From a virus, in the UHGV virus genome UHGV-1546666: DNA of 10,101 nt. One strand, 5' to 3'. Positions 1-10,026 of the stretch are shown in pieces. Made by a program: the position numbers and the translations under genes. Within the stretch, counting starts at the first letter, position 1; each line of letters opens with the position of its first letter. The notes beneath the pieces were generated by a model. The model did no database searches. It was not told the DNA's origin and saw only the letters and a list, made by a program, of their open reading frames with translations.

Positions 1-199
1 TCTTCAGTTTATCTTTCTGTTTCTGCTCCTCTCGTCGTCGTTTCTTCTCTGCTGCTTTTTCCGCTTTTTCGCGTTCTTTACTTCGTCGTTCGAGTGCTAA
101 TTGAGTTCCGTGTTCCGGGCAGCACCACCACTGATTTGAGAATGCCGGGTGAAACCATTCTTTGCATATTTTGCATTTCCTTCGCGCTGGTTTAGCCAT
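1..199 (-). CDS. ninG: NinG/Rap-family protein, N-terminal 66 codons only (gene continues past the window start)
   Basis: Minus-strand translation from ATG at 199..197 reads [66 protein letters not shown], which matches my recollection of the lambda NinG N-terminus (Cys-rich motif followed by a Lys/Glu-rich stretch). The ATG overlaps the stop of the upstream gene (TAATG). Not in the ORF track because it is truncated by the window edge. Confidence 0.7.
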
Positions 200-927
200 T
201 AAGCAGCCTCCCCTGTTACTTTCAGCATTCCGTTATCGAGCAGCTTTCTGGTCAGCCACTGTTGACCACGCCCGGTGATTTTTGTGGTGAACGATATCTG
301 TATTCCGTGATTTGTGTTGACCGCTGTTTCTTTCACTGTGAAATAGCCGCGCTCCATATATTCCTGCATTGGCACATTGCGCCGGGCACCTGAAGTAATA
401 AGGATTTTGTGATCGCGCATCCACGCAAACAGTTTGTTTGGACCAATTCCAACAACCTTTGCATAGTTTCCAATCAAAATTCCGCTGGCCTCGCCAACGC
501 GATCGGCAAACTCAACTTTAGGTGCTGCGAGAGCAAGCTGTTTCTCCAGTTCAGCCTTCTGGTCTTCAAGGTCGGCCGCAAGGCGCAATGCCTCAGAAAA
601 GGTTTGTGGTATTTTCGCGGTTGCCCCTTCGAGTTCTCGCCAACGGTCAACAAGACGAGCGGTGAATTCCGGCGACAACTGAGCGACGACAATAATGCTG
701 TCGCGCTTACCTTTTTCGCCTTCGAAGACGTAATGCTCGTACTGAACATTGAACCCTAAGTTATTGATTCTTTCGGAAACCTCAATTTGAGGAAGCCGGA
801 TAACTCCACTTTTAACCAGCGTTTCGATGGTTCGTTTCACATTGTCATGACGCTTACCTGTAAGCTCAGCGATTTCAATGCTAGTCATTTTGATGACGTT
901 GCTATTTATCAGCTCGTTCATTGTCAT
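199..927 (-). CDS. Rha-family phage regulatory protein with antirepressor-like (KilAC/ANT-type) C-terminal region, 242 aa
   Basis: ORF-track protein. The N-terminal segment [24 protein letters not shown] is the typical Rha signature and the C-terminal half resembles antirepressor C-terminal domains (from memory). RBS GAGAGGA lies upstream of the ATG at 927. Confidence 0.75.
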
Positions 928-953
928 GTCCTCTCATATTGAAAATTCACCAA

Positions 954-979
954 TAAAAAACCCAGCCGAAGCTGGGTTT
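954..979 (-). terminator. Rho-independent terminator (second of a tandem pair downstream of the 1073..2086 gene)
   Basis: Stem cccagc (961-966) / gctggg (971-976) with loop cgaa. On the minus strand the hairpin is followed by a run of six T (complement of the A-run at 955-960). Confidence 0.5.
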
Positions 980-1043
980 GTTAAGTTGTCAATGGTCAGT
1001 AGTAATGCAGTGAAGGAGGTAAACTTACGCTGAAGGATTTGTA

Positions 1044-1066
1044 CAAAAAAACCACCTGAAGGTGGG
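1044..1066 (-). terminator. Rho-independent terminator immediately after the stop of the 1073..2086 gene
   Basis: Stem ccacc (1052-1056) / ggtgg (1061-1065) with loop tgaa. On the minus strand it is followed by seven T (complement of the A-run 1044-1050). It begins 7 nt after the stop codon at 1073-1075. Confidence 0.55.
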
Positions 1067-1072
1067 TTACTG

Positions 1073-2086
1073 TTACTTGTCTGAATCATCCAGTTCGTCT
1101 GTTTTCACATCCTCAAACCTTGGATGCAGGCGATTCATTTTTGCAATAAAATCTGAATAGTCGTTAGATAGCTTCATAATCGTAACGGTTGATGACAGAT
1201 GCTCTCTTAATTTTTGATATCCAATATTTGGCGTCAGCCCCTGAAACAACTTTGTACCTTTTGAGGCCTTTACGTTCTGCTTTTTAAGCTCCTCAAGGAT
1301 GTTTGGTGCCAATCTCTTGTAGACGATATCATTTGTCAAAACGCCAAAATACTGAGGCCGGAAGCGGGGATTTTCCGGCGGGTATTCTAAGCCCCTTAAC
1401 CTGAAAAGCTCTTCATAATAATCAGCAGGAAATGTTGTAATATAAGGTTGAATTTCCTTTGCGACAAAGGCCTCGAGTATTTTGGCGAGCGCATCTTTTT
1501 CTCTATCTCGCTGGTACCCCGTCGCTTCATCAACAAGCGCTATTATTCCGACTTTAGCTAATGAGCGCACCAGAATTTCAGCTTTCTTGGCTGTCTCTAA
1601 CTGGTTTGGCCTGGTGATAGCGCCTGCCTCTCTTGCCTTTAAATAAACATCGCAGACAAGAGGTATTATGGATGCGTCATAACCTTCCTGGACGGAGCCA
1701 GTAATCGTCTTGTATTTGACCTTATTGATCACACCCATAACATCTTGATTTATATATTTTTTAAGGTTTGCAGCATCCATAAAAGCGGGCATATTGATCA
1801 CCCCCTCTTCTTGAGGTGCTCTACCCCCTCTTTGTGGTCGGCCAAATGCTTTAAAAACAGAAGCTTGTGATATGATACGCCGTCCATTTTCGAGAACCGC
1901 GACATCTAATTCCGCATCACCGATCTTTAACTTTCCCTCATTCGCAGATACGGGCAATAAAGCTTTTTCTTTTTTTGCGGCAACAGCCTTTCTTGAGGAT
2001 TCTTTTCTTTGCTCTGCTGTCATTTTTGCCGCGCGTGCCTTACCGCCTTTGGCCTTCCCACTAACATCATCATTTTTCATGAGCAT
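1073..2086 (-). CDS. Hypothetical accessory (moron-like) protein, about 337 aa, with a Lys/Arg/Ala-rich basic N-terminal tail and a globular C-terminal domain; possibly a P63C-type phage domain
   Basis: ORF-track 355-aa frame, with the start moved to the in-frame ATG at 2086..2084 (MLMKNDD...) because the track's first codon lies upstream of the -10 element of its own promoter; a second ATG at 2080 is also possible. The N-terminus is GKAKGGKARAAKMTAEQRKESSRKAVAAKKEK. The P63C family call is a weak recollection only. Confidence 0.6.
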   Translation of the reverse strand: MLMKNDDVSGKAKGGKARAAKMTAEQRKESSRKAVAAKKEKALLPVSANEGKLKIGDAELDVAVLENGRRIISQASVFKAFGRPQRGGRAPQEEGVINMPAFMDAANLKKYINQDVMGVINKVKYKTITGSVQEGYDASIIPLVCDVYLKAREAGAITRPNQLETAKKAEILVRSLAKVGIIALVDEATGYQRDREKDALAKILEAFVAKEIQPYITTFPADYYEELFRLRGLEYPPENPRFRPQYFGVLTNDIVYKRLAPNILEELKKQNVKASKGTKLFQGLTPNIGYQKLREHLSSTVTIMKLSNDYSDFIAKMNRLHPRFEDVKTDELDDSDK

Positions 2087-2103
2087 ATCTCGTGTTGTGA
2101 TTG

Positions 2104-2140
2104 ATAAGTCAATTATACACATGCACGTTGTAACGTGCAA
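2104..2140 (-). promoter_or_regulatory. Sigma70-type promoter for the 1073..2086 gene, with overlapping palindromic operator
   Basis: On the minus strand: -35 TTGCAC (2140..2135), 17-nt spacer, consensus -10 TATAAT (2117..2112). The inverted repeat TGCACGTT-gt-AACGTGCA (2122..2139) overlaps the -35 and spacer, and a third TGCACGT half-site lies at 2151..2157. Confidence 0.5.
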
Positions 2141-2205
2141 TATTTAAATATGCACGTAAATTGCGAATCAGATAATGAGGAGACTTTCTCCCCCTTGCAC
2201 TGACA

Positions 2206-2307
2206 TCATGGTATTCTGCTCAAAACTAAATTTCTGGAGCGTTTCGTTGGAAGGTATTTGCAGTTTTCGCAGATGATGTCGGTGAAACTTCGTCGCTGTC
2301 GCCTCAT
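2206..2307 (-). pseudogene. ninE: ninE remnant: 26 NinE-like codons followed by unrelated sequence and an early stop (33 aa total)
   Basis: Minus-strand translation from ATG 2307..2305 reads [26 protein letters not shown] then LVLSRIP*. The first 26 residues match my recollection of lambda NinE ([29 protein letters not shown]..., 60 aa). The ATG overlaps the stop of the upstream ORF as ATGA. The ORF is below the 60-aa track threshold. Confidence 0.5.
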
Positions 2308-2906
2308 GCCGCCCTGTCTCCCCATCTTGCTTTCATTGTTTCATTTGCAAATCGCCAGAATCTTCCTTTGTGATATGAGCTTTCGCCATTACAGCAACGA
2401 CTAATTGACGAACTATCAAATCCTTCTCTGACAGCATCCATAGCTGCTTCATAATAAACCTCCTCCCCAGTTTTCATGTCAGTAGAAATAACAGCTTTAC
2501 TGGCAGGATGATCACCACTAAATTTACCTAGCGATATAGGTATTCTTCCATTTTGTTTATATCCGTGCTTTGAGTTTTCAGAATGTGATACCCATTCAAG
2601 GTTTTCAGCCCTATTGTCATCTCTTTGCCCATTTTTGTGATTAACTACCAAGCCATCACAGAACCCTGTACAGAATGCTTTCGCAACTATCCTGTGGGCG
2701 CTGTATTTCTTACCGTATACCTTTATTTGAAGATATCCTGTCGACTTGCACTTGAATGGTTTTACGCTAGTGCCATTAATTATTTTCTTATATGGCCTCT
2801 GTCTGGTTGATGTTACTGTAATTTCCCTCGTAATAGACCTGAAATTTCCTTTATTGCTAACCTGATAAAATGGAATTCCTTCGATATCTACCCAAACCTC
2901 AATCAT
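2304..2906 (-). CDS. HNH homing endonuclease (NUMOD4 motif plus HNH_3-type nuclease motif), 200 aa
   Basis: [21 protein letters not shown] is a NUMOD4-like motif. [11 protein letters not shown]...[25 protein letters not shown] is an HNH_3-type motif (His-Arg, HxNG, DNR, ENLEW). A GGAGG RBS sits 4-5 nt before the ATG, which overlaps the ninB stop. The region is visibly AT-richer than the lambda-core genes. Confidence 0.85.
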
Positions 2907-3315
2907 AATTCCTCCATTCGCTAAGATTAATTGAGTTCATGGCACAATATGCTTCTATGTAGTCCATTATTTCGGATATTTTTTTTACAGATAGAGTCGC
3001 CGTACTCTCTCTGATGTTTATTAGCTCACCTTCTAACCCTGATATAATCTCAGGGTGCTGGTTGGTTGCAATCTGCCAACCAGAAACGAATAACCCCTTC
3101 CAAAACTCAATATTTCTTGCTTTTCCATGATATGTAGCCTTCTTACTTATTTCAGATAGCATCGCGTGAAGGCGTGCATTTTGCCGAATGCTGCGGTTGC
3201 GTTCCTGAATGGTTACTACGATTGGTTTGGTTGGGTCTGGAAGAATTTGCTGGATAGCTTGAATGGCGTTCTGCTGATGGATGGGGCTTCTTAGTTCAAA
3301 TGTTAGTTTCCTCAT
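2899..3315 (-). CDS. ninB: NinB (Orf-family recombination mediator), about 138 aa
   Basis: Start placed at the internal Met of the 165-aa track ORF (MRKLTFELRSPIHQQNAIQAIQQILPDPTKPIVVTIQERNRS...), which aligns with the lambda NinB N-terminus MKKLTFEIRSPAHQQNAIHAVQQILPDPTKPIVVTIQERNRS. The C-terminal portion is divergent and ends ...SEWRNYD. Confidence 0.8.
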   Translation of the reverse strand: MRKLTFELRSPIHQQNAIQAIQQILPDPTKPIVVTIQERNRSIRQNARLHAMLSEISKKATYHGKARNIEFWKGLFVSGWQIATNQHPEIISGLEGELINIRESTATLSVKKISEIMDYIEAYCAMNSINLSEWRNYD

Positions 3316-3478
3316 CACCCTTAATCCTCTCGAAGTTCTTCTCGAAGTTTTTGGTGTCGAACACTGACCACCGACCATTATGAATGGCGTATGCACAGGT
3401 CTTGTTTTCGTCCTGATAAACTACCCTTACCTTGCGATAAAACCGTGGCTTAATCTCTCTGAATATTTGCTCGCTCAT
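3296..3478 (-). CDS. Hypothetical small phage protein, about 60 aa
   Basis: Track ORF 3296..3484 trimmed to the ATG at 3478, which has a strong RBS (GAAGGAG, 5-nt spacer). It is Lys/Arg/Glu-rich and of unknown family. Its 3' end overlaps the ninB start by about 20 nt in a different frame. Confidence 0.5.
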   Translation of the reverse strand: MSEQIFREIKPRFYRKVRVVYQDENKTCAYAIHNGRWSVFDTKNFEKNFERIKGDEETNI

Positions 3479-3488
3479 GCTCACTCCT

Positions 3489-3704
3489 TCACTTTAAATC
3501 CAGACTCCGGATAATTCTGTTGCGCTGAAACTCATTGTTGAGTTTGAACAACCGTCGAAGAACACGGTCACGCGGATAGCGTCGTGCGGCAGGTGAATGC
3601 TCATACAACTCATCAAGCGGCAAACTGGACGATGAACGATACCGATACCAACGCACCAACTCTTCACGAAAATTAGCCCTGACAAGCTCAGCTATCGTAC
3701 TCAT
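3489..3704 (-). CDS. Hypothetical small phage protein, 71 aa, Arg-rich
   Basis: Track ORF. The ATG at 3704 overlaps the stop of an upstream 30-codon ORF as ATGA. Lies in the ren-to-ninB interval. No family recognised. Confidence 0.5.
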   Translation of the reverse strand: MSTIAELVRANFREELVRWYRYRSSSSLPLDELYEHSPAARRYPRDRVLRRLFKLNNEFQRNRIIRSLDLK

Positions 3705-3793
3705 TTCTTAAAGCCTCCAATTACTCTTCCCCAAATAAAAAGGCCTGCGATTACCAGCAGGCCTGTTACAAGCTCAGTGATGTAGATGGTCAT
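3701..3793 (-). CDS. Candidate 30-aa hydrophobic single-helix peptide (MTIYITELVTGLLVIAGLFIWGRVIGGFKK)
   Basis: Found by manual translation; it is below the track threshold. The ATG (3793..3791) overlaps the ren stop as ATGA and the stop overlaps the orf71 start as ATGA, so the frame is exactly bridged between two genes. A terminator-like hairpin lies inside it, which makes the call ambiguous. Confidence 0.35.
   Translation of the reverse strand: MTIYITELVTGLLVIAGLFIWGRVIGGFKK
3735..3764 (-). terminator. tR2-like hairpin downstream of ren
   Basis: 8-bp stem aggcctgc (3741-3748) / gcaggcct (3757-3764) with an 8-nt loop. On the minus strand it is followed by TTTTATTT. Position is analogous to lambda tR2, but it overlaps the candidate small ORF. 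Confidence 0.4.
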
Positions 3794-4080
3794 CTTTTAA
3801 CTCCATATACCGCCAATACCCGTTTCATCACTGCACTCTGGCGACACTCCTTAAAAATCAGGTTCGTGCTCACCTTTCCTTCCCGTTCTTCCCTGGTAGC
3901 AAACCGGTAATACACCGTTCGCCAGACCTTACCATCAATGACAAGGATTCCTGCCCGCGCCATTTTAGCCGCAGCCTGATTTATACTGGTTACGGTTGCG
4001 CCTGTTACCGCGGAAACGTCCTGTGCACAGAAGTTCTTATGCGCCCCGAGGTAATGAATAATTGCCTCTTTGCCCGTCAT
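3790..4080 (-). CDS. ren: Ren protein, 96 aa
   Basis: MTGKEAIIHYLGAHKNFCAQDVSAVTGATVTSINQAAAKMARAGILVIDGKVWRTVYYRFATREEREGK... is near-identical to my recollection of lambda Ren (same length and start). Confidence 0.85.
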   Translation of the reverse strand: MTGKEAIIHYLGAHKNFCAQDVSAVTGATVTSINQAAAKMARAGILVIDGKVWRTVYYRFATREEREGKVSTNLIFKECRQSAVMKRVLAVYGVKR

Positions 4081-6448: not shown

Positions 6449-7096
6449 ATGAAAACGATGCATGAAATTATCGGGGAAAGGATCAAGTCCCTTAGAGAAG
6501 CTAAAGGACTTAGCCAGGCTCAATTGGCCAAGCTTTGCGGCTGGGCTGCGCCTTCACGCCTGGGGAACTACGAGTTAGGAACAAGAAAGGTTAGCGCGGA
6601 TGACGCGCTGGTTCTTGGGGCGGCACTCGGCGTATCTCCGGCAAAAATAATGTTTGGCGAGGATTCAGACGCTGTATTTCGCCAATATGAGTACCCGTTA
6701 TTTTCTTCAGTGCAGGCCGGGCCGTTTTCGGAGGTTGGAAGCTACACAGCAAGCGATGCAAAGGCATGGGTCCCAACGACCACAAAAGCCAGCGAAAAAG
6801 CTTTCTGGCTTGAGGTGAAAGGCCATTCTATGACTGCGCCACAGGGCGTAAGGCCGAGTTTTCCTGAGGGTATGCTGATACTCGTTGATCCGGCCGAGCC
6901 GGTAGAGTCTGGGGATTTCTGCGTGGCTTCTGCAAATGGTGATTCAGAGGCAACGTTCAAGAAGTATGAGAAGGATGCAGGGGTTAGTTACTTGGTTCCA
7001 TTGAATCCGGCATACAGAACCCTGGACTGCGATCACACATGCCGCATCATAGGCAAGGTAGTTAAGGCTCAGTGGCCTGAAGAGACGTTTGGATGA
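6449..7096 (+). CDS. cI: CI-type prophage repressor: N-terminal HTH plus C-terminal S24 (LexA-like) autopeptidase domain, 215 aa
   Basis: N-terminal HTH segment [24 protein letters not shown]. Ala-Gly cleavage site in SSVQAGPF. Catalytic Ser in KGHSMTAP and Lys in RIIGKVVKA. Divergent from cro with operators between. Confidence 0.9.
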
Positions 7097-7146
7097 TGGA
7101 TGGTCGCAGAGATGCTCGTAGAGCATACAGCGATGCAGGAGAATTT

Positions 7147-7581
7147 ATGGCACTTAATTTAGAAAGAATATCTTTTATAACCCCATTTGATAGCAGCGAA
7201 GAACCCAACCAACCGACGCTTAATTTTACATGCAATGAATTTCCTGCGCGGCTATCGATTGATTTCAGGGTTGGTATGATCGGGTTGAAACCAAATTCAA
7301 GATATAATTTGGGTATTATGGTAATCCCCGCGCACCTAATTATAAAAAAAGGTGAGGAAATTCAATTCCCTGACGGCTCTTCGGAATCAGTTTCACTTTT
7401 CATCGATACGAAAGATAGCCATTTTGAAACAGGGGTTGGCGGACAGGTAATAGTAACATTGAAAGAAATTAGGGTCCCAGCTAAAGGGCTGTATAGTGTT
7501 ATAGGGATATTGCAAGATAATGAAGACCCTAAAAATGAACTTCATAAAAATGAATCATTTTTCACCGTAGAGCTATTATGA
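7147..7581 (+). CDS. Hypothetical protein A of the cI-linked accessory cassette, about 144 aa, no recognised domain
   Basis: Start chosen at the ATG at 7147 with RBS AGGAG and a 6-nt spacer (MALNLERISFITPFDSSEEPNQ...). The track's longer ORF starting at 7093 lacks a good RBS. AT-rich relative to cI. The stop overlaps the next gene's start (ATGA at 7578-7581). Confidence 0.6.
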   Translation: MALNLERISFITPFDSSEEPNQPTLNFTCNEFPARLSIDFRVGMIGLKPNSRYNLGIMVIPAHLIIKKGEEIQFPDGSSESVSLFIDTKDSHFETGVGGQVIVTLKEIRVPAKGLYSVIGILQDNEDPKNELHKNESFFTVELL

Positions 7582-8198
7582 GTGACGACAGTAATTTAAA
7601 TAATCATGGAAAGCAAGACACCAACATATCTGAAAGCCGGAGGTTGAAGGTTGTTGGCGGTTCCGATTTTGAGGCTGAATTTGATAATTCTCCCACCAAG
7701 GTGCAAAATAATTACATAAAACCGCCACAAACGGAGGAAGAAGTGGGAACGATCAGCAGAGAGGAACTTGATGCTCGCTTAGCTGCTAATAAAGCAGAGA
7801 TGGAGTCTATTGCTTCTTCCATTAGGACTGACATGGCTCTATCTCGTGAAAGCGTTAATGTCCAATTTGCATCACTTAATGCAGCCATAAGCTCTCTATC
7901 GTCCAAGATCGATGGAAAGATGGATAGCGCTGCTGGCGATATAAAAGCAATTAATGGGAGATTCGAAGGAATTCAAGGACAAATAACAGGGGTTAATACC
8001 GCAATTAGTGGTGTTCAGTCGGGTATTTCTATACGATTAGCCATTTTTAGTGTCATTATCGCTGTAATAGTTGCGATTCCCGGGCTGGTATCAGCTTTAA
8101 AGTCAGACCACGCACCTTTGCAACAGCCTTCCACTTTGCAAGCGCCGCCACAAAATACCCAGCCAACAGACAACAAAAAAATCACTCCCCAGCATTAA
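7578..8198 (+). CDS. Hypothetical protein B of the cI-linked cassette, 206 aa: polar N-terminus, Ser/Ala/Gly-rich coiled-coil-like segment, single C-terminal transmembrane helix, Pro/Gln-rich tail
   Basis: Track ORF, translationally coupled to protein A. The hydrophobic stretch RLAIFSVIIAVIVAIPGLVSAL lies near the C-terminus. The middle segment has heptad-like repeats (ASLNAAISSLSSKIDGKMDSAAGDIKAINGRFEGIQGQITGVNTAISGVQSGI). A terminator follows directly. Confidence 0.65.
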   Translation: MSDDSNLNNHGKQDTNISESRRLKVVGGSDFEAEFDNSPTKVQNNYIKPPQTEEEVGTISREELDARLAANKAEMESIASSIRTDMALSRESVNVQFASLNAAISSLSSKIDGKMDSAAGDIKAINGRFEGIQGQITGVNTAISGVQSGISIRLAIFSVIIAVIVAIPGLVSALKSDHAPLQQPSTLQAPPQNTQPTDNKKITPQH

Positions 8199-9819: not shown

Positions 9820-9885
9820 ATATGCATACCAATAACGCTTCACTAGAGGCGTTTTCGTTATGTGTAAATAAATAAGGAGCACACC

Positions 9886-10026
9886 ATGCAATATGCCATT
9901 GCAGGGTGGCCTGTTGCTGGCTGCCCTTCCGAATCTTTACTTGAACGAATCACCCGTAAATTACGTGACGGATGGAAACGCCTTATCGACATACTTAATC
10001 AGCCAGGAGTTCCCAAAAATGGATAA
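9886..10026 (+). CDS. cIII: CIII (FtsH inhibitor), 46 aa, apparently truncated by a premature stop
   Basis: Manual translation gives MQYAIAGWPVAGCPSESLLERITRKLRDGWKRLIDILNQPGVPKNG*, which matches lambda CIII (54 aa from memory). RBS TAAGGAG. After the TAA the same frame still encodes NTYGYPD*, the expected CIII tail. Below the track threshold. Confidence 0.75.
   Translation: MQYAIAGWPVAGCPSESLLERITRKLRDGWKRLIDILNQPGVPKNG

Follow-up and report, generated by a model that had tools for sequence, protein, structure and literature searches.

A P63C-family gene cassette with a putative self-operator in the nin region of a lambdoid phage genome

The window analyzed here, a 10,101-nucleotide stretch of the viral genome UHGV-1546666, represents the early region of a lambdoid genome resembling the Shiga toxin (Stx) phages, and carries a single gene of the P63C family between a truncated ninE and the 'roi' gene. 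We consider it probable that positions 1017-2229 form an insulated single-gene moron, that this unit would occupy a variable slot extending from ninE codon 26 to the terminator before roi, and that its product would bind its own promoter, while any function favoring the element that carries it is a guess. The cassette itself is already annotated in the databases, 933W included, and the P63C gene of the 933W-type Shiga-toxin phages of E. coli O157:H7 has stood as a 'hypothetical protein' since those phages were sequenced; no published function of L0095, the 933W copy, was found in the literature searched. The new elements are evidence that an N-terminal helix outside the Pfam models reads a self-operator, and the breadth of carriers in which the gene is found.

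Results

Operator half-sites travel with the gene

The window holds three copies of the heptamer ACGTGCA (TGCACGT on the opposite strand), clustered within 2122-2157. The first 50 kb of 933W contain the same three copies, and neither stretch has further half-sites that could serve as other targets. The three copies are arranged as ACGTGCA-N11-TGCACGT-N4-ACGTGCA and make up two overlapping palindromes that cover part of the promoter of this gene; an operator had been listed in the initial annotation. Comparison with eight aligned upstream regions (six enteric, one from Janthinobacterium and one from Chromobacterium) revealed that TTGCACGT is invariant, and the position of the distal half-site is kept in L004, L006, L008 and L013. 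Among relatives of 59-87% identity, whose hosts are a lambdoid prophage, Morganella, 'Enterobacterales CwR94', Xenorhabdus and Enterobacter, the three sites hold their register with the -10 element and the start codon while the spacer sequences differ. The relatives of 70-87% identity carry these three half-sites in register within quite different accessory slots, namely the cI-N interval and a P22-type immI region, as the moron proposed by the initial annotation would be expected to do.

The association of operator and gene extends far beyond the enteric phages. A survey of 80 loci from species-representative genomes, whose proteins are 41-70% identical over their full length, covered Alpha-, Beta-, Gamma- and Deltaproteobacteria, Actinobacteria, Chloroflexi, Planctomycetes, Chlamydiae, Nitrospira, Acidobacteria and Bacteroidetes. 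Within 130 nt upstream of 82 unique family genes, heptamer counts exceeded those expected from the remainder of the loci: GCAAGCA was found 118 times (2.2 expected) and CAAGCAT 111 times (1.3 expected), and related heptamers were enriched 16- to 84-fold; in many of the surveyed loci one copy of the half-site overlaps the start codon. No second gene travels with the operator among the surveyed loci. An apparent second 'paralogue' cluster downstream of the gene was rejected as an artefact of antisense reading frames, except in L034.

A scan of IMG/VR for TGCACGT-N4-ACGTGCA returned 103 matches, 27 of them directly upstream of a P63C homologue, and six of these 27 homologues are only 33-88% identical. 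The other 76 palindromes have no P63C gene nearby; we judge most of them to be chance matches, a rough estimate from the size of the collection rather than a computed expectation. One group of these comes from five high-GC (guanine plus cytosine) phage contigs without a P63C gene; the contigs (L096, L123, L134, L161 and L197) carry the palindrome TGCACGTTATAACGTGCA and a third half-site between divergent XRE-type genes, where it appears to be an unrelated operator of identical sequence.

Residues of the N-terminal motif covary with bases of the half-sites

Half-sites were assigned to classes by bases 5 and 7 of TGCA[A/C]G[C/T], the window belonging to class C/T, and were compared with an alignment of 61 distinct proteins; switches were counted by Fitch parsimony on a tree built from the C-terminal part of the proteins only. 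Residue 30 (window numbering) is serine or alanine in all 16 loci with C at base 5, and isoleucine, valine, asparagine or arginine in all 45 loci with A at this base, giving a concordance of 61 out of 61 sequences. This residue is the top column of the whole alignment, with a ratio of mutual information to entropy of 1.0, and the next column (residue 22, at 0.52) belongs to the same motif. Base 7 is tracked by residues 35 (valine versus alanine) and 39 (lysine or arginine versus tryptophan) of the same helix. The covarying residues all fall within the conserved motif GGxARAxx(L/M)TxExRxE(I/S)AxKA(A/V)xA(R/K)(W/K). C-type operators are scattered over the C-terminal tree, and the eight switches of base 5 and the eight switches of residue class always occur together.

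The cognate sites in the gene's own promoter thus covary with the residues presumed to read them, as expected of a self-operator. The protein most likely binds its own promoter, since residue 30 and base 5 agree in every sequence across eight independent switches; DNA binding is strongly indicated by this comparison, at the gene's own promoter only. Repression of that promoter is most likely the outcome, because the sites lie over the -35 element and the spacer, and over the start point as well in many relatives.

Architecture of the product

The 337-residue reading frame that had been reported on the minus strand is present, and the suggested similarity to P63C proteins was right. Residues 203-293 match the Pfam model P63C (PF10546) from position 1 to 93 of 93 with 84.1 bits against a cut-off of 26.1 (E = 1e-23), and all 35 aligned relatives match the same model. 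Clustered at 90% identity, the family has over 6,700 clusters, and its members are 42-50% identical across phyla. The model takes its name from the C-terminal domain of Myxococcus phage Mx8 p63, a protein that was also recovered by a fold search with the window protein (E = 1.3e-4); the domain was reportedly defined by Iyer et al. in 2002. The model spans about one quarter of the window protein and says nothing of function, while the N-terminal motif and the middle domain lie outside any Pfam model.

Residues 11-42 form a basic two-helix motif, GGKARAxxMTxEQRKESSRKAVAAKK, which is the putative DNA reader and is modeled as helices 11-20 and 24-42 with a predicted local distance difference test score of 76-89. 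Residues 46-137 form a beta-rich domain. Searches of a viral structure library returned, after true P63C relatives including Mx8 p63, sub-threshold matches of this domain to Bro, Bro-N, KilA and antirepressor proteins, and weak fold matches to APSES-like proteins were also obtained; these matches suggest a Bro-N-like domain. No Pfam or profile relation of the middle domain to Bro-N was found: Pfam at E <= 5 on the 35 relatives gave nothing for residues 1-200, the ANT/KilAC, Bro-N and P22_AR models had no match even at that threshold, and hhalign comparisons with P27 Ant, 933W Ant and the Roi protein of the window gave a probability of at most 1%. A weak match to the PHROG 'anti-repressor Ant' was obtained (E = 0.005), and searches of NCBIfam and of the PDB sequences yielded spurious weak matches only. 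The remaining residues, 140-337, are all-alpha and contain the P63C domain, with ALVDEATGYQ...R and TND..Y.RLAP as the most conserved residues.

Boundaries of the cassette

The unit of putative operator and promoter, gene and terminator comes and goes between similar phages, in agreement with the suggestion that a moron has been inserted into the nin region. Phage P27, whose ninE is full-length, has an Ant cassette at the corresponding place, and alignment with the window places both breakpoints sharply (Table 1). The initial annotation had stated that the ninE frame matches NinE for 26 codons and then diverges, and its translation, the P27 alignment and the annotation of the same stub in EDL933 all confirmed this. 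From 2307 to 2230 the DNA is identical to that of P27 ninE over 26 codons, one residue being different (F8 versus I8); after codon 26 the frame diverges and it stops after 33 codons, so that 26 codons are kept of a full-length NinE frame of about 60-64 residues. The Prokaryotic Genome Annotation Pipeline (PGAP) lists the stub in EDL933 as a pseudogene, 'NinE family protein, incomplete, missing C-terminus'.

Tandem terminators had also been proposed. Two hairpins followed by T-runs do exist, but the second belongs to the backbone. The hairpin at 1052-1065 is the only terminator specific to the cassette and is weak, with a folding free energy of -8.6 kcal/mol and a z score of -1.4. The hairpin at 958-979 (-15.1 kcal/mol, z score -5.1) is identical in P27, where it lies 3' of a different cassette, and it is assigned to the shared backbone because the P27 alignment resumes at about 1016-1019. 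The 80-nt segment that contains it (935-1016, minus strand) is nearly identical in P27 and looks like a conserved nin-region terminator that marks a recombination joint; in P27 a further insert of 570 bp lies between this segment and roi. A small RNA between the two terminators, which was also considered, is unsupported, and Rfam on the whole window finds nothing in the cassette.

The claim that the cassette is richer in AT than its flanks did not hold. Its GC content of about 0.40-0.46 is below that of roi and O/P (0.46-0.58), yet not below that of the adjacent HNH endonuclease and ninB genes (0.35-0.44). The base composition of the cassette does not set it apart from its neighbors, as it falls within the range of HNH, ninB and roi (0.35-0.51).

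Window positions 900-2319 are 99.2-99.4% identical to 933W (L0095/ST933Wp35), Nil3 (ORF350), BP-4795 and several Stx2a phages, which share with the window the cassette, its slot, the ninE stub and the three half-sites; the identity to the L0095/ST933Wp35 gene is 99.3%. The cassette was found in 45 of 5426 complete E. coli genomes, while about 2150 of these genomes match window 900-2400, a stretch that includes the flanks, at least in part; the cassette is therefore a minority occupant of a variable slot.

Table 1 Features of the cassette and its surroundings, with IS1-family units that carry relatives of the gene. Coordinates are those of the window, or of the named locus for the last four rows.
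Feature	Coordinates	Strand	Remarks
P63C-family gene	1073..2086	-	ATG 2086 gives 337 aa; ATG 2080, giving 335 aa, is more likely
Predicted -10 TATAAT	2112-2117	-	spacer of 17 nt to TTGCAC; start site predicted at about 2105
Predicted -35 TTGCAC	2135-2140	-	inside central half-site
Distal half-site ACGTGCA	2151..2157	-	about -52 to -46 from predicted start; 11-nt spacer to central half-site
Central half-site (TGCACGT on - strand)	2133..2139	+	contains -35 hexamer
Proximal half-site ACGTGCA	2122..2128	-	in -35/-10 spacer; with central half-site forms TGCACGT-N4-ACGTGCA, centre about -25
Truncated ninE	2206..2307	-	26 ninE codons (2230-2307), 7 unrelated codons and stop; from translations and P27 alignment
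Left breakpoint	2229..2230		identity to P27 ends after ...CGCTCCAGAAAT
Right breakpoint	1016..1019		homology to P27 resumes
Terminator of the cassette	1045..1065	-	weak; hairpin 1052-1065, 5-bp stem CCACC/GGTGG, then T7
Strong terminator before roi	953..979	-	shared backbone; hairpin 958-979, 9-bp stem and T6
'roi' gene	199-927	-	Rha and KilAC domains; in the operon, after the cassette
HNH/NUMOD4 homing-type endonuclease	2304-2906	-	between ninB and ninE stub
ninB	2899-3396	-	in the rightward operon
cI	6449-7096	+	
IS1-family unit, L038	2981-5313		
IS1-family unit, L041	2978-5338		
IS1-family unit, L085	3017-5232		
IS1-family unit, L090	3046-5263		

Predicted promoter and start codon

Of the near-consensus sigma70 promoter that the initial annotation described, the TATAAT element and the 17-nt spacer stand, while the -35 hexamer TTGCAC agrees with TTGACA at just 3 of 6 positions. 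The promoter scan did not call the site because of this poor -35 element. The position of TTGCAC-17-TATAAT is conserved among relatives, and we infer from sequence that the promoter would be active, that the P63C protein would regulate it negatively and that the gene would be expressed in the lysogen. The window differs from 933W in its -10 element: 933W (L199, about 17538-17543) and 20 of 21 near-identical copies in viral contigs have TATGAT, which a single G-to-A change turns into the perfect consensus TATAAT.

The start codon is probably ATG 2080, giving 335 residues, rather than ATG 2086, as judged from how a conserved GAG(A) motif is spaced in relatives; a conserved motif of the 5' untranslated region, CACAACACGAGA, sits 8-9 nt before their start codons, and 335 residues is also the length annotated on most contigs. 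The PGAP start (ATG 2122, 349 residues) falls in the predicted -10 element, and the extra N-terminal stretch is not conserved. Hairpins at 2078-2094, over the start codon, and at 2177-2194 were no better than those of shuffled sequences.

Other carriers of the gene

Relatives of the gene were found in several kinds of mobile element. In three unrelated prophages (L004, L008 and L014) the gene lies between cI and N, on the cI strand and with a terminator before it, and in L006 it lies beside arc/mnt/ant in a P22-type immI region. A Pseudomonas island carries the gene in differing flanks. At 21 of about 78 genome loci an IS1-family DDE transposase gene lies directly upstream in divergent orientation, and in four of these 21 loci terminal inverted repeats of 19-22 bp enclose both genes in units of 2.2-2.4 kb (Table 1). 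These units consist of a single-reading-frame DDE transposase and a divergent P63C passenger, and the intergenic region is full of ATGCAAGCAT-type half-sites; their terminal repeats mostly begin GGTAGTG (in L090, GGGGGCACTGG). The window copy is a phage cassette: the window lacks a transposase, and inspection of its sequence by eye showed no IS1-type repeats, the search for repeats having covered the relatives only. Given the nin, cI-N, immI, island and IS1-type contexts, the gene is regarded as general cargo of mobile elements. In L014 the interval separating the CI repressor gene from the P63C gene holds, at 2311-3856, a candidate defence pair of PADLOC, PDC-M18A (E = 4e-45) and PDC-M18B (E = 1.5e-50).

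Discussion

We propose that the second helix of the N-terminal hairpin would read the 7-bp half-sites (TGCACGT) across the -35 element and the spacer, and that the protein so bound would most likely repress its own promoter. Such autorepression would hold expression at a low and steady level independent of pR, N and Q, in the lysogen as well. The P63C domain would in turn protect or favor the carrier element, by exclusion of, or competition with, other invading DNA. This last step is a guess to which we give a clear minority chance. A protective role is nonetheless ranked above one in phage development because of the diverse carriers, the lack of other binding sites in the window and in 50 kb of 933W, and the conservation across phyla, which points to a universal target. 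In its boldest form, in which the highly conserved C-terminal domain would be a single-gene effector of exclusion or defence of a new type, or another new way for mobile elements to act on a universal host component, and the family a widespread self-contained cargo with a residue-to-base code, the proposal is more doubtful still.

Several observations weigh against parts of this explanation. Covariation reports co-evolution and is silent on the sign of regulation, and the centre of the distal palindrome lies near -40, a position that activators also use. The -35 element is poor and the promoter was left uncalled by the scan, the only terminator of the cassette is weak, and the gene has the orientation of the early-right operon; in lytic growth, transcripts that read through under N antitermination would express it as well. 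As to protection, no structural or sequence relative of known function was found for residues 140-337, PADLOC-DB 2.0 gave no real match (one spurious type I S subunit at 14.7 bits), and the association with candidate defence genes comes from one locus. The literature searched contained no function for the P63C family, nor for the passenger genes of ISMhu11, and no description of the N-terminal motif.

A different account would make the gene a phage developmental regulator of the antirepressor, Rha or Roi type, expressed mainly by read-through from pR and acting early in lytic growth on the lysis-lysogeny decision or on host transcription, with the self-operator merely trimming its level. The gene does share the strand and position of the nin-region early genes and lies next to roi, with its Rha and KilAC domains; P27 has an Ant gene in the same slot, the middle domain has its weak fold matches to Bro-N, antirepressor and KilA proteins, and the weak PHROG match is to Ant. 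The Bro-N/KilA-N regulators and the antirepressors Ant and Roi likewise combine a DNA-binding N-terminal part with a helical C-terminal domain. Unlike Ant and Roi, to which no sequence or profile relation was detected by hhalign, the window protein has its putative base reader in a separate basic helix before the Bro-N-like domain. A developmental role is also hard to reconcile with the confinement of the half-sites to the gene's own promoter, in the window and in 50 kb of 933W, and with prophages in which the gene lies on the cI side of the immunity region behind a terminator. Carriage by islands and IS1-type units, and 42-50% identity across phyla, are unlike what a partner as variable as a phage repressor would impose, and we regard this account as unlikely. 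The IS1-type units invite another reading, namely that the gene helps its carrier to move or to persist, as a cofactor or regulator of transposition or recombination or as an addiction-type module, and that it is insertion-sequence cargo of which the phage copies are hitch-hikers. The divergent transposase in about a quarter of the genome loci, the shared intergenic regions filled with half-sites and the GGTAGTG... repeats that bound both genes in L038, L041, L085 and L090 agree with it, and tight autoregulation is typical of addiction modules. Most loci, including all enteric phage copies, however lack an adjoining transposase, no antidote gene travels with the P63C gene, and no nuclease, recombinase or toxin fold was detected, which leaves a role in mobility or persistence improbable.

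It could finally be supposed that another factor, from host or phage, binds the repeats in place of the P63C protein and that the covariation reflects shared descent. The palindrome is indeed not unique to the P63C family, since it also appears to be the operator of an unrelated XRE-type immunity region in some actinophage contigs. Against another binder stand the eight independent base switches, each matched by the class of residue 30, the lack of any other gene that travels with the operator, and the presence of half-sites with the gene in Proteobacteria, Actinobacteria, Chloroflexi, Planctomycetes, Chlamydiae and Nitrospira, for which no common host factor would be expected. We consider this last possibility very improbable, and the insulated moron with a self-binding product remains our best overall explanation.

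The cassette may be compared with the known lambdoid morons. The moron concept is said to go back to Juhala, Hendrix and colleagues, and lambda rexAB, bor and lom belong among the lambdoid morons and lysogen-expressed accessory genes. Like them, the window cassette is a unit of predicted promoter, gene and terminator that is present or absent between related phages, and relatives of the window gene occupy the rex position between cI and N. The window cassette differs in having an operator that is putatively read by its own product, and its family is also cargo of transposons and islands beyond the lambdoid phages. Steady, self-set expression in the lysogen, if true, would make the gene a candidate factor for lysogenic conversion or exclusion in a prophage of medical importance. 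The covariation provides a testable recognition code (Ser/Ala30 with C, Ile30 with A) in a short motif outside the Pfam models. That the same gene rides on phages, islands and IS1-type transposons across most bacterial phyla suggests a general mobile-element function.

Neighboring genes of the window

The rightward operon of the window lies on the minus strand and includes cro, cII, O, P and ren, followed by a DUF7301 gene and the nin-region genes listed in Table 1. In 933W, unlike the window, a DNA methyltransferase gene takes the position of the HNH/NUMOD4 endonuclease, and P27 has both genes. The junction of HNH, ninE stub and P63C seen in the window was in no complete E. coli genome of the collection. 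Directly 3' of cI, in the position of rexAB, lies an overlapping pair of plus-strand genes (7093-7581, 162 residues, and 7578-8198, 206 residues); neither has a match in Pfam or PADLOC, and both are candidate accessory genes expressed in the lysogen. The lambda cIII thermoregulator element was matched by Rfam at 9873-9931 on the plus strand, with 88.5 bits against a gathering score of 50.

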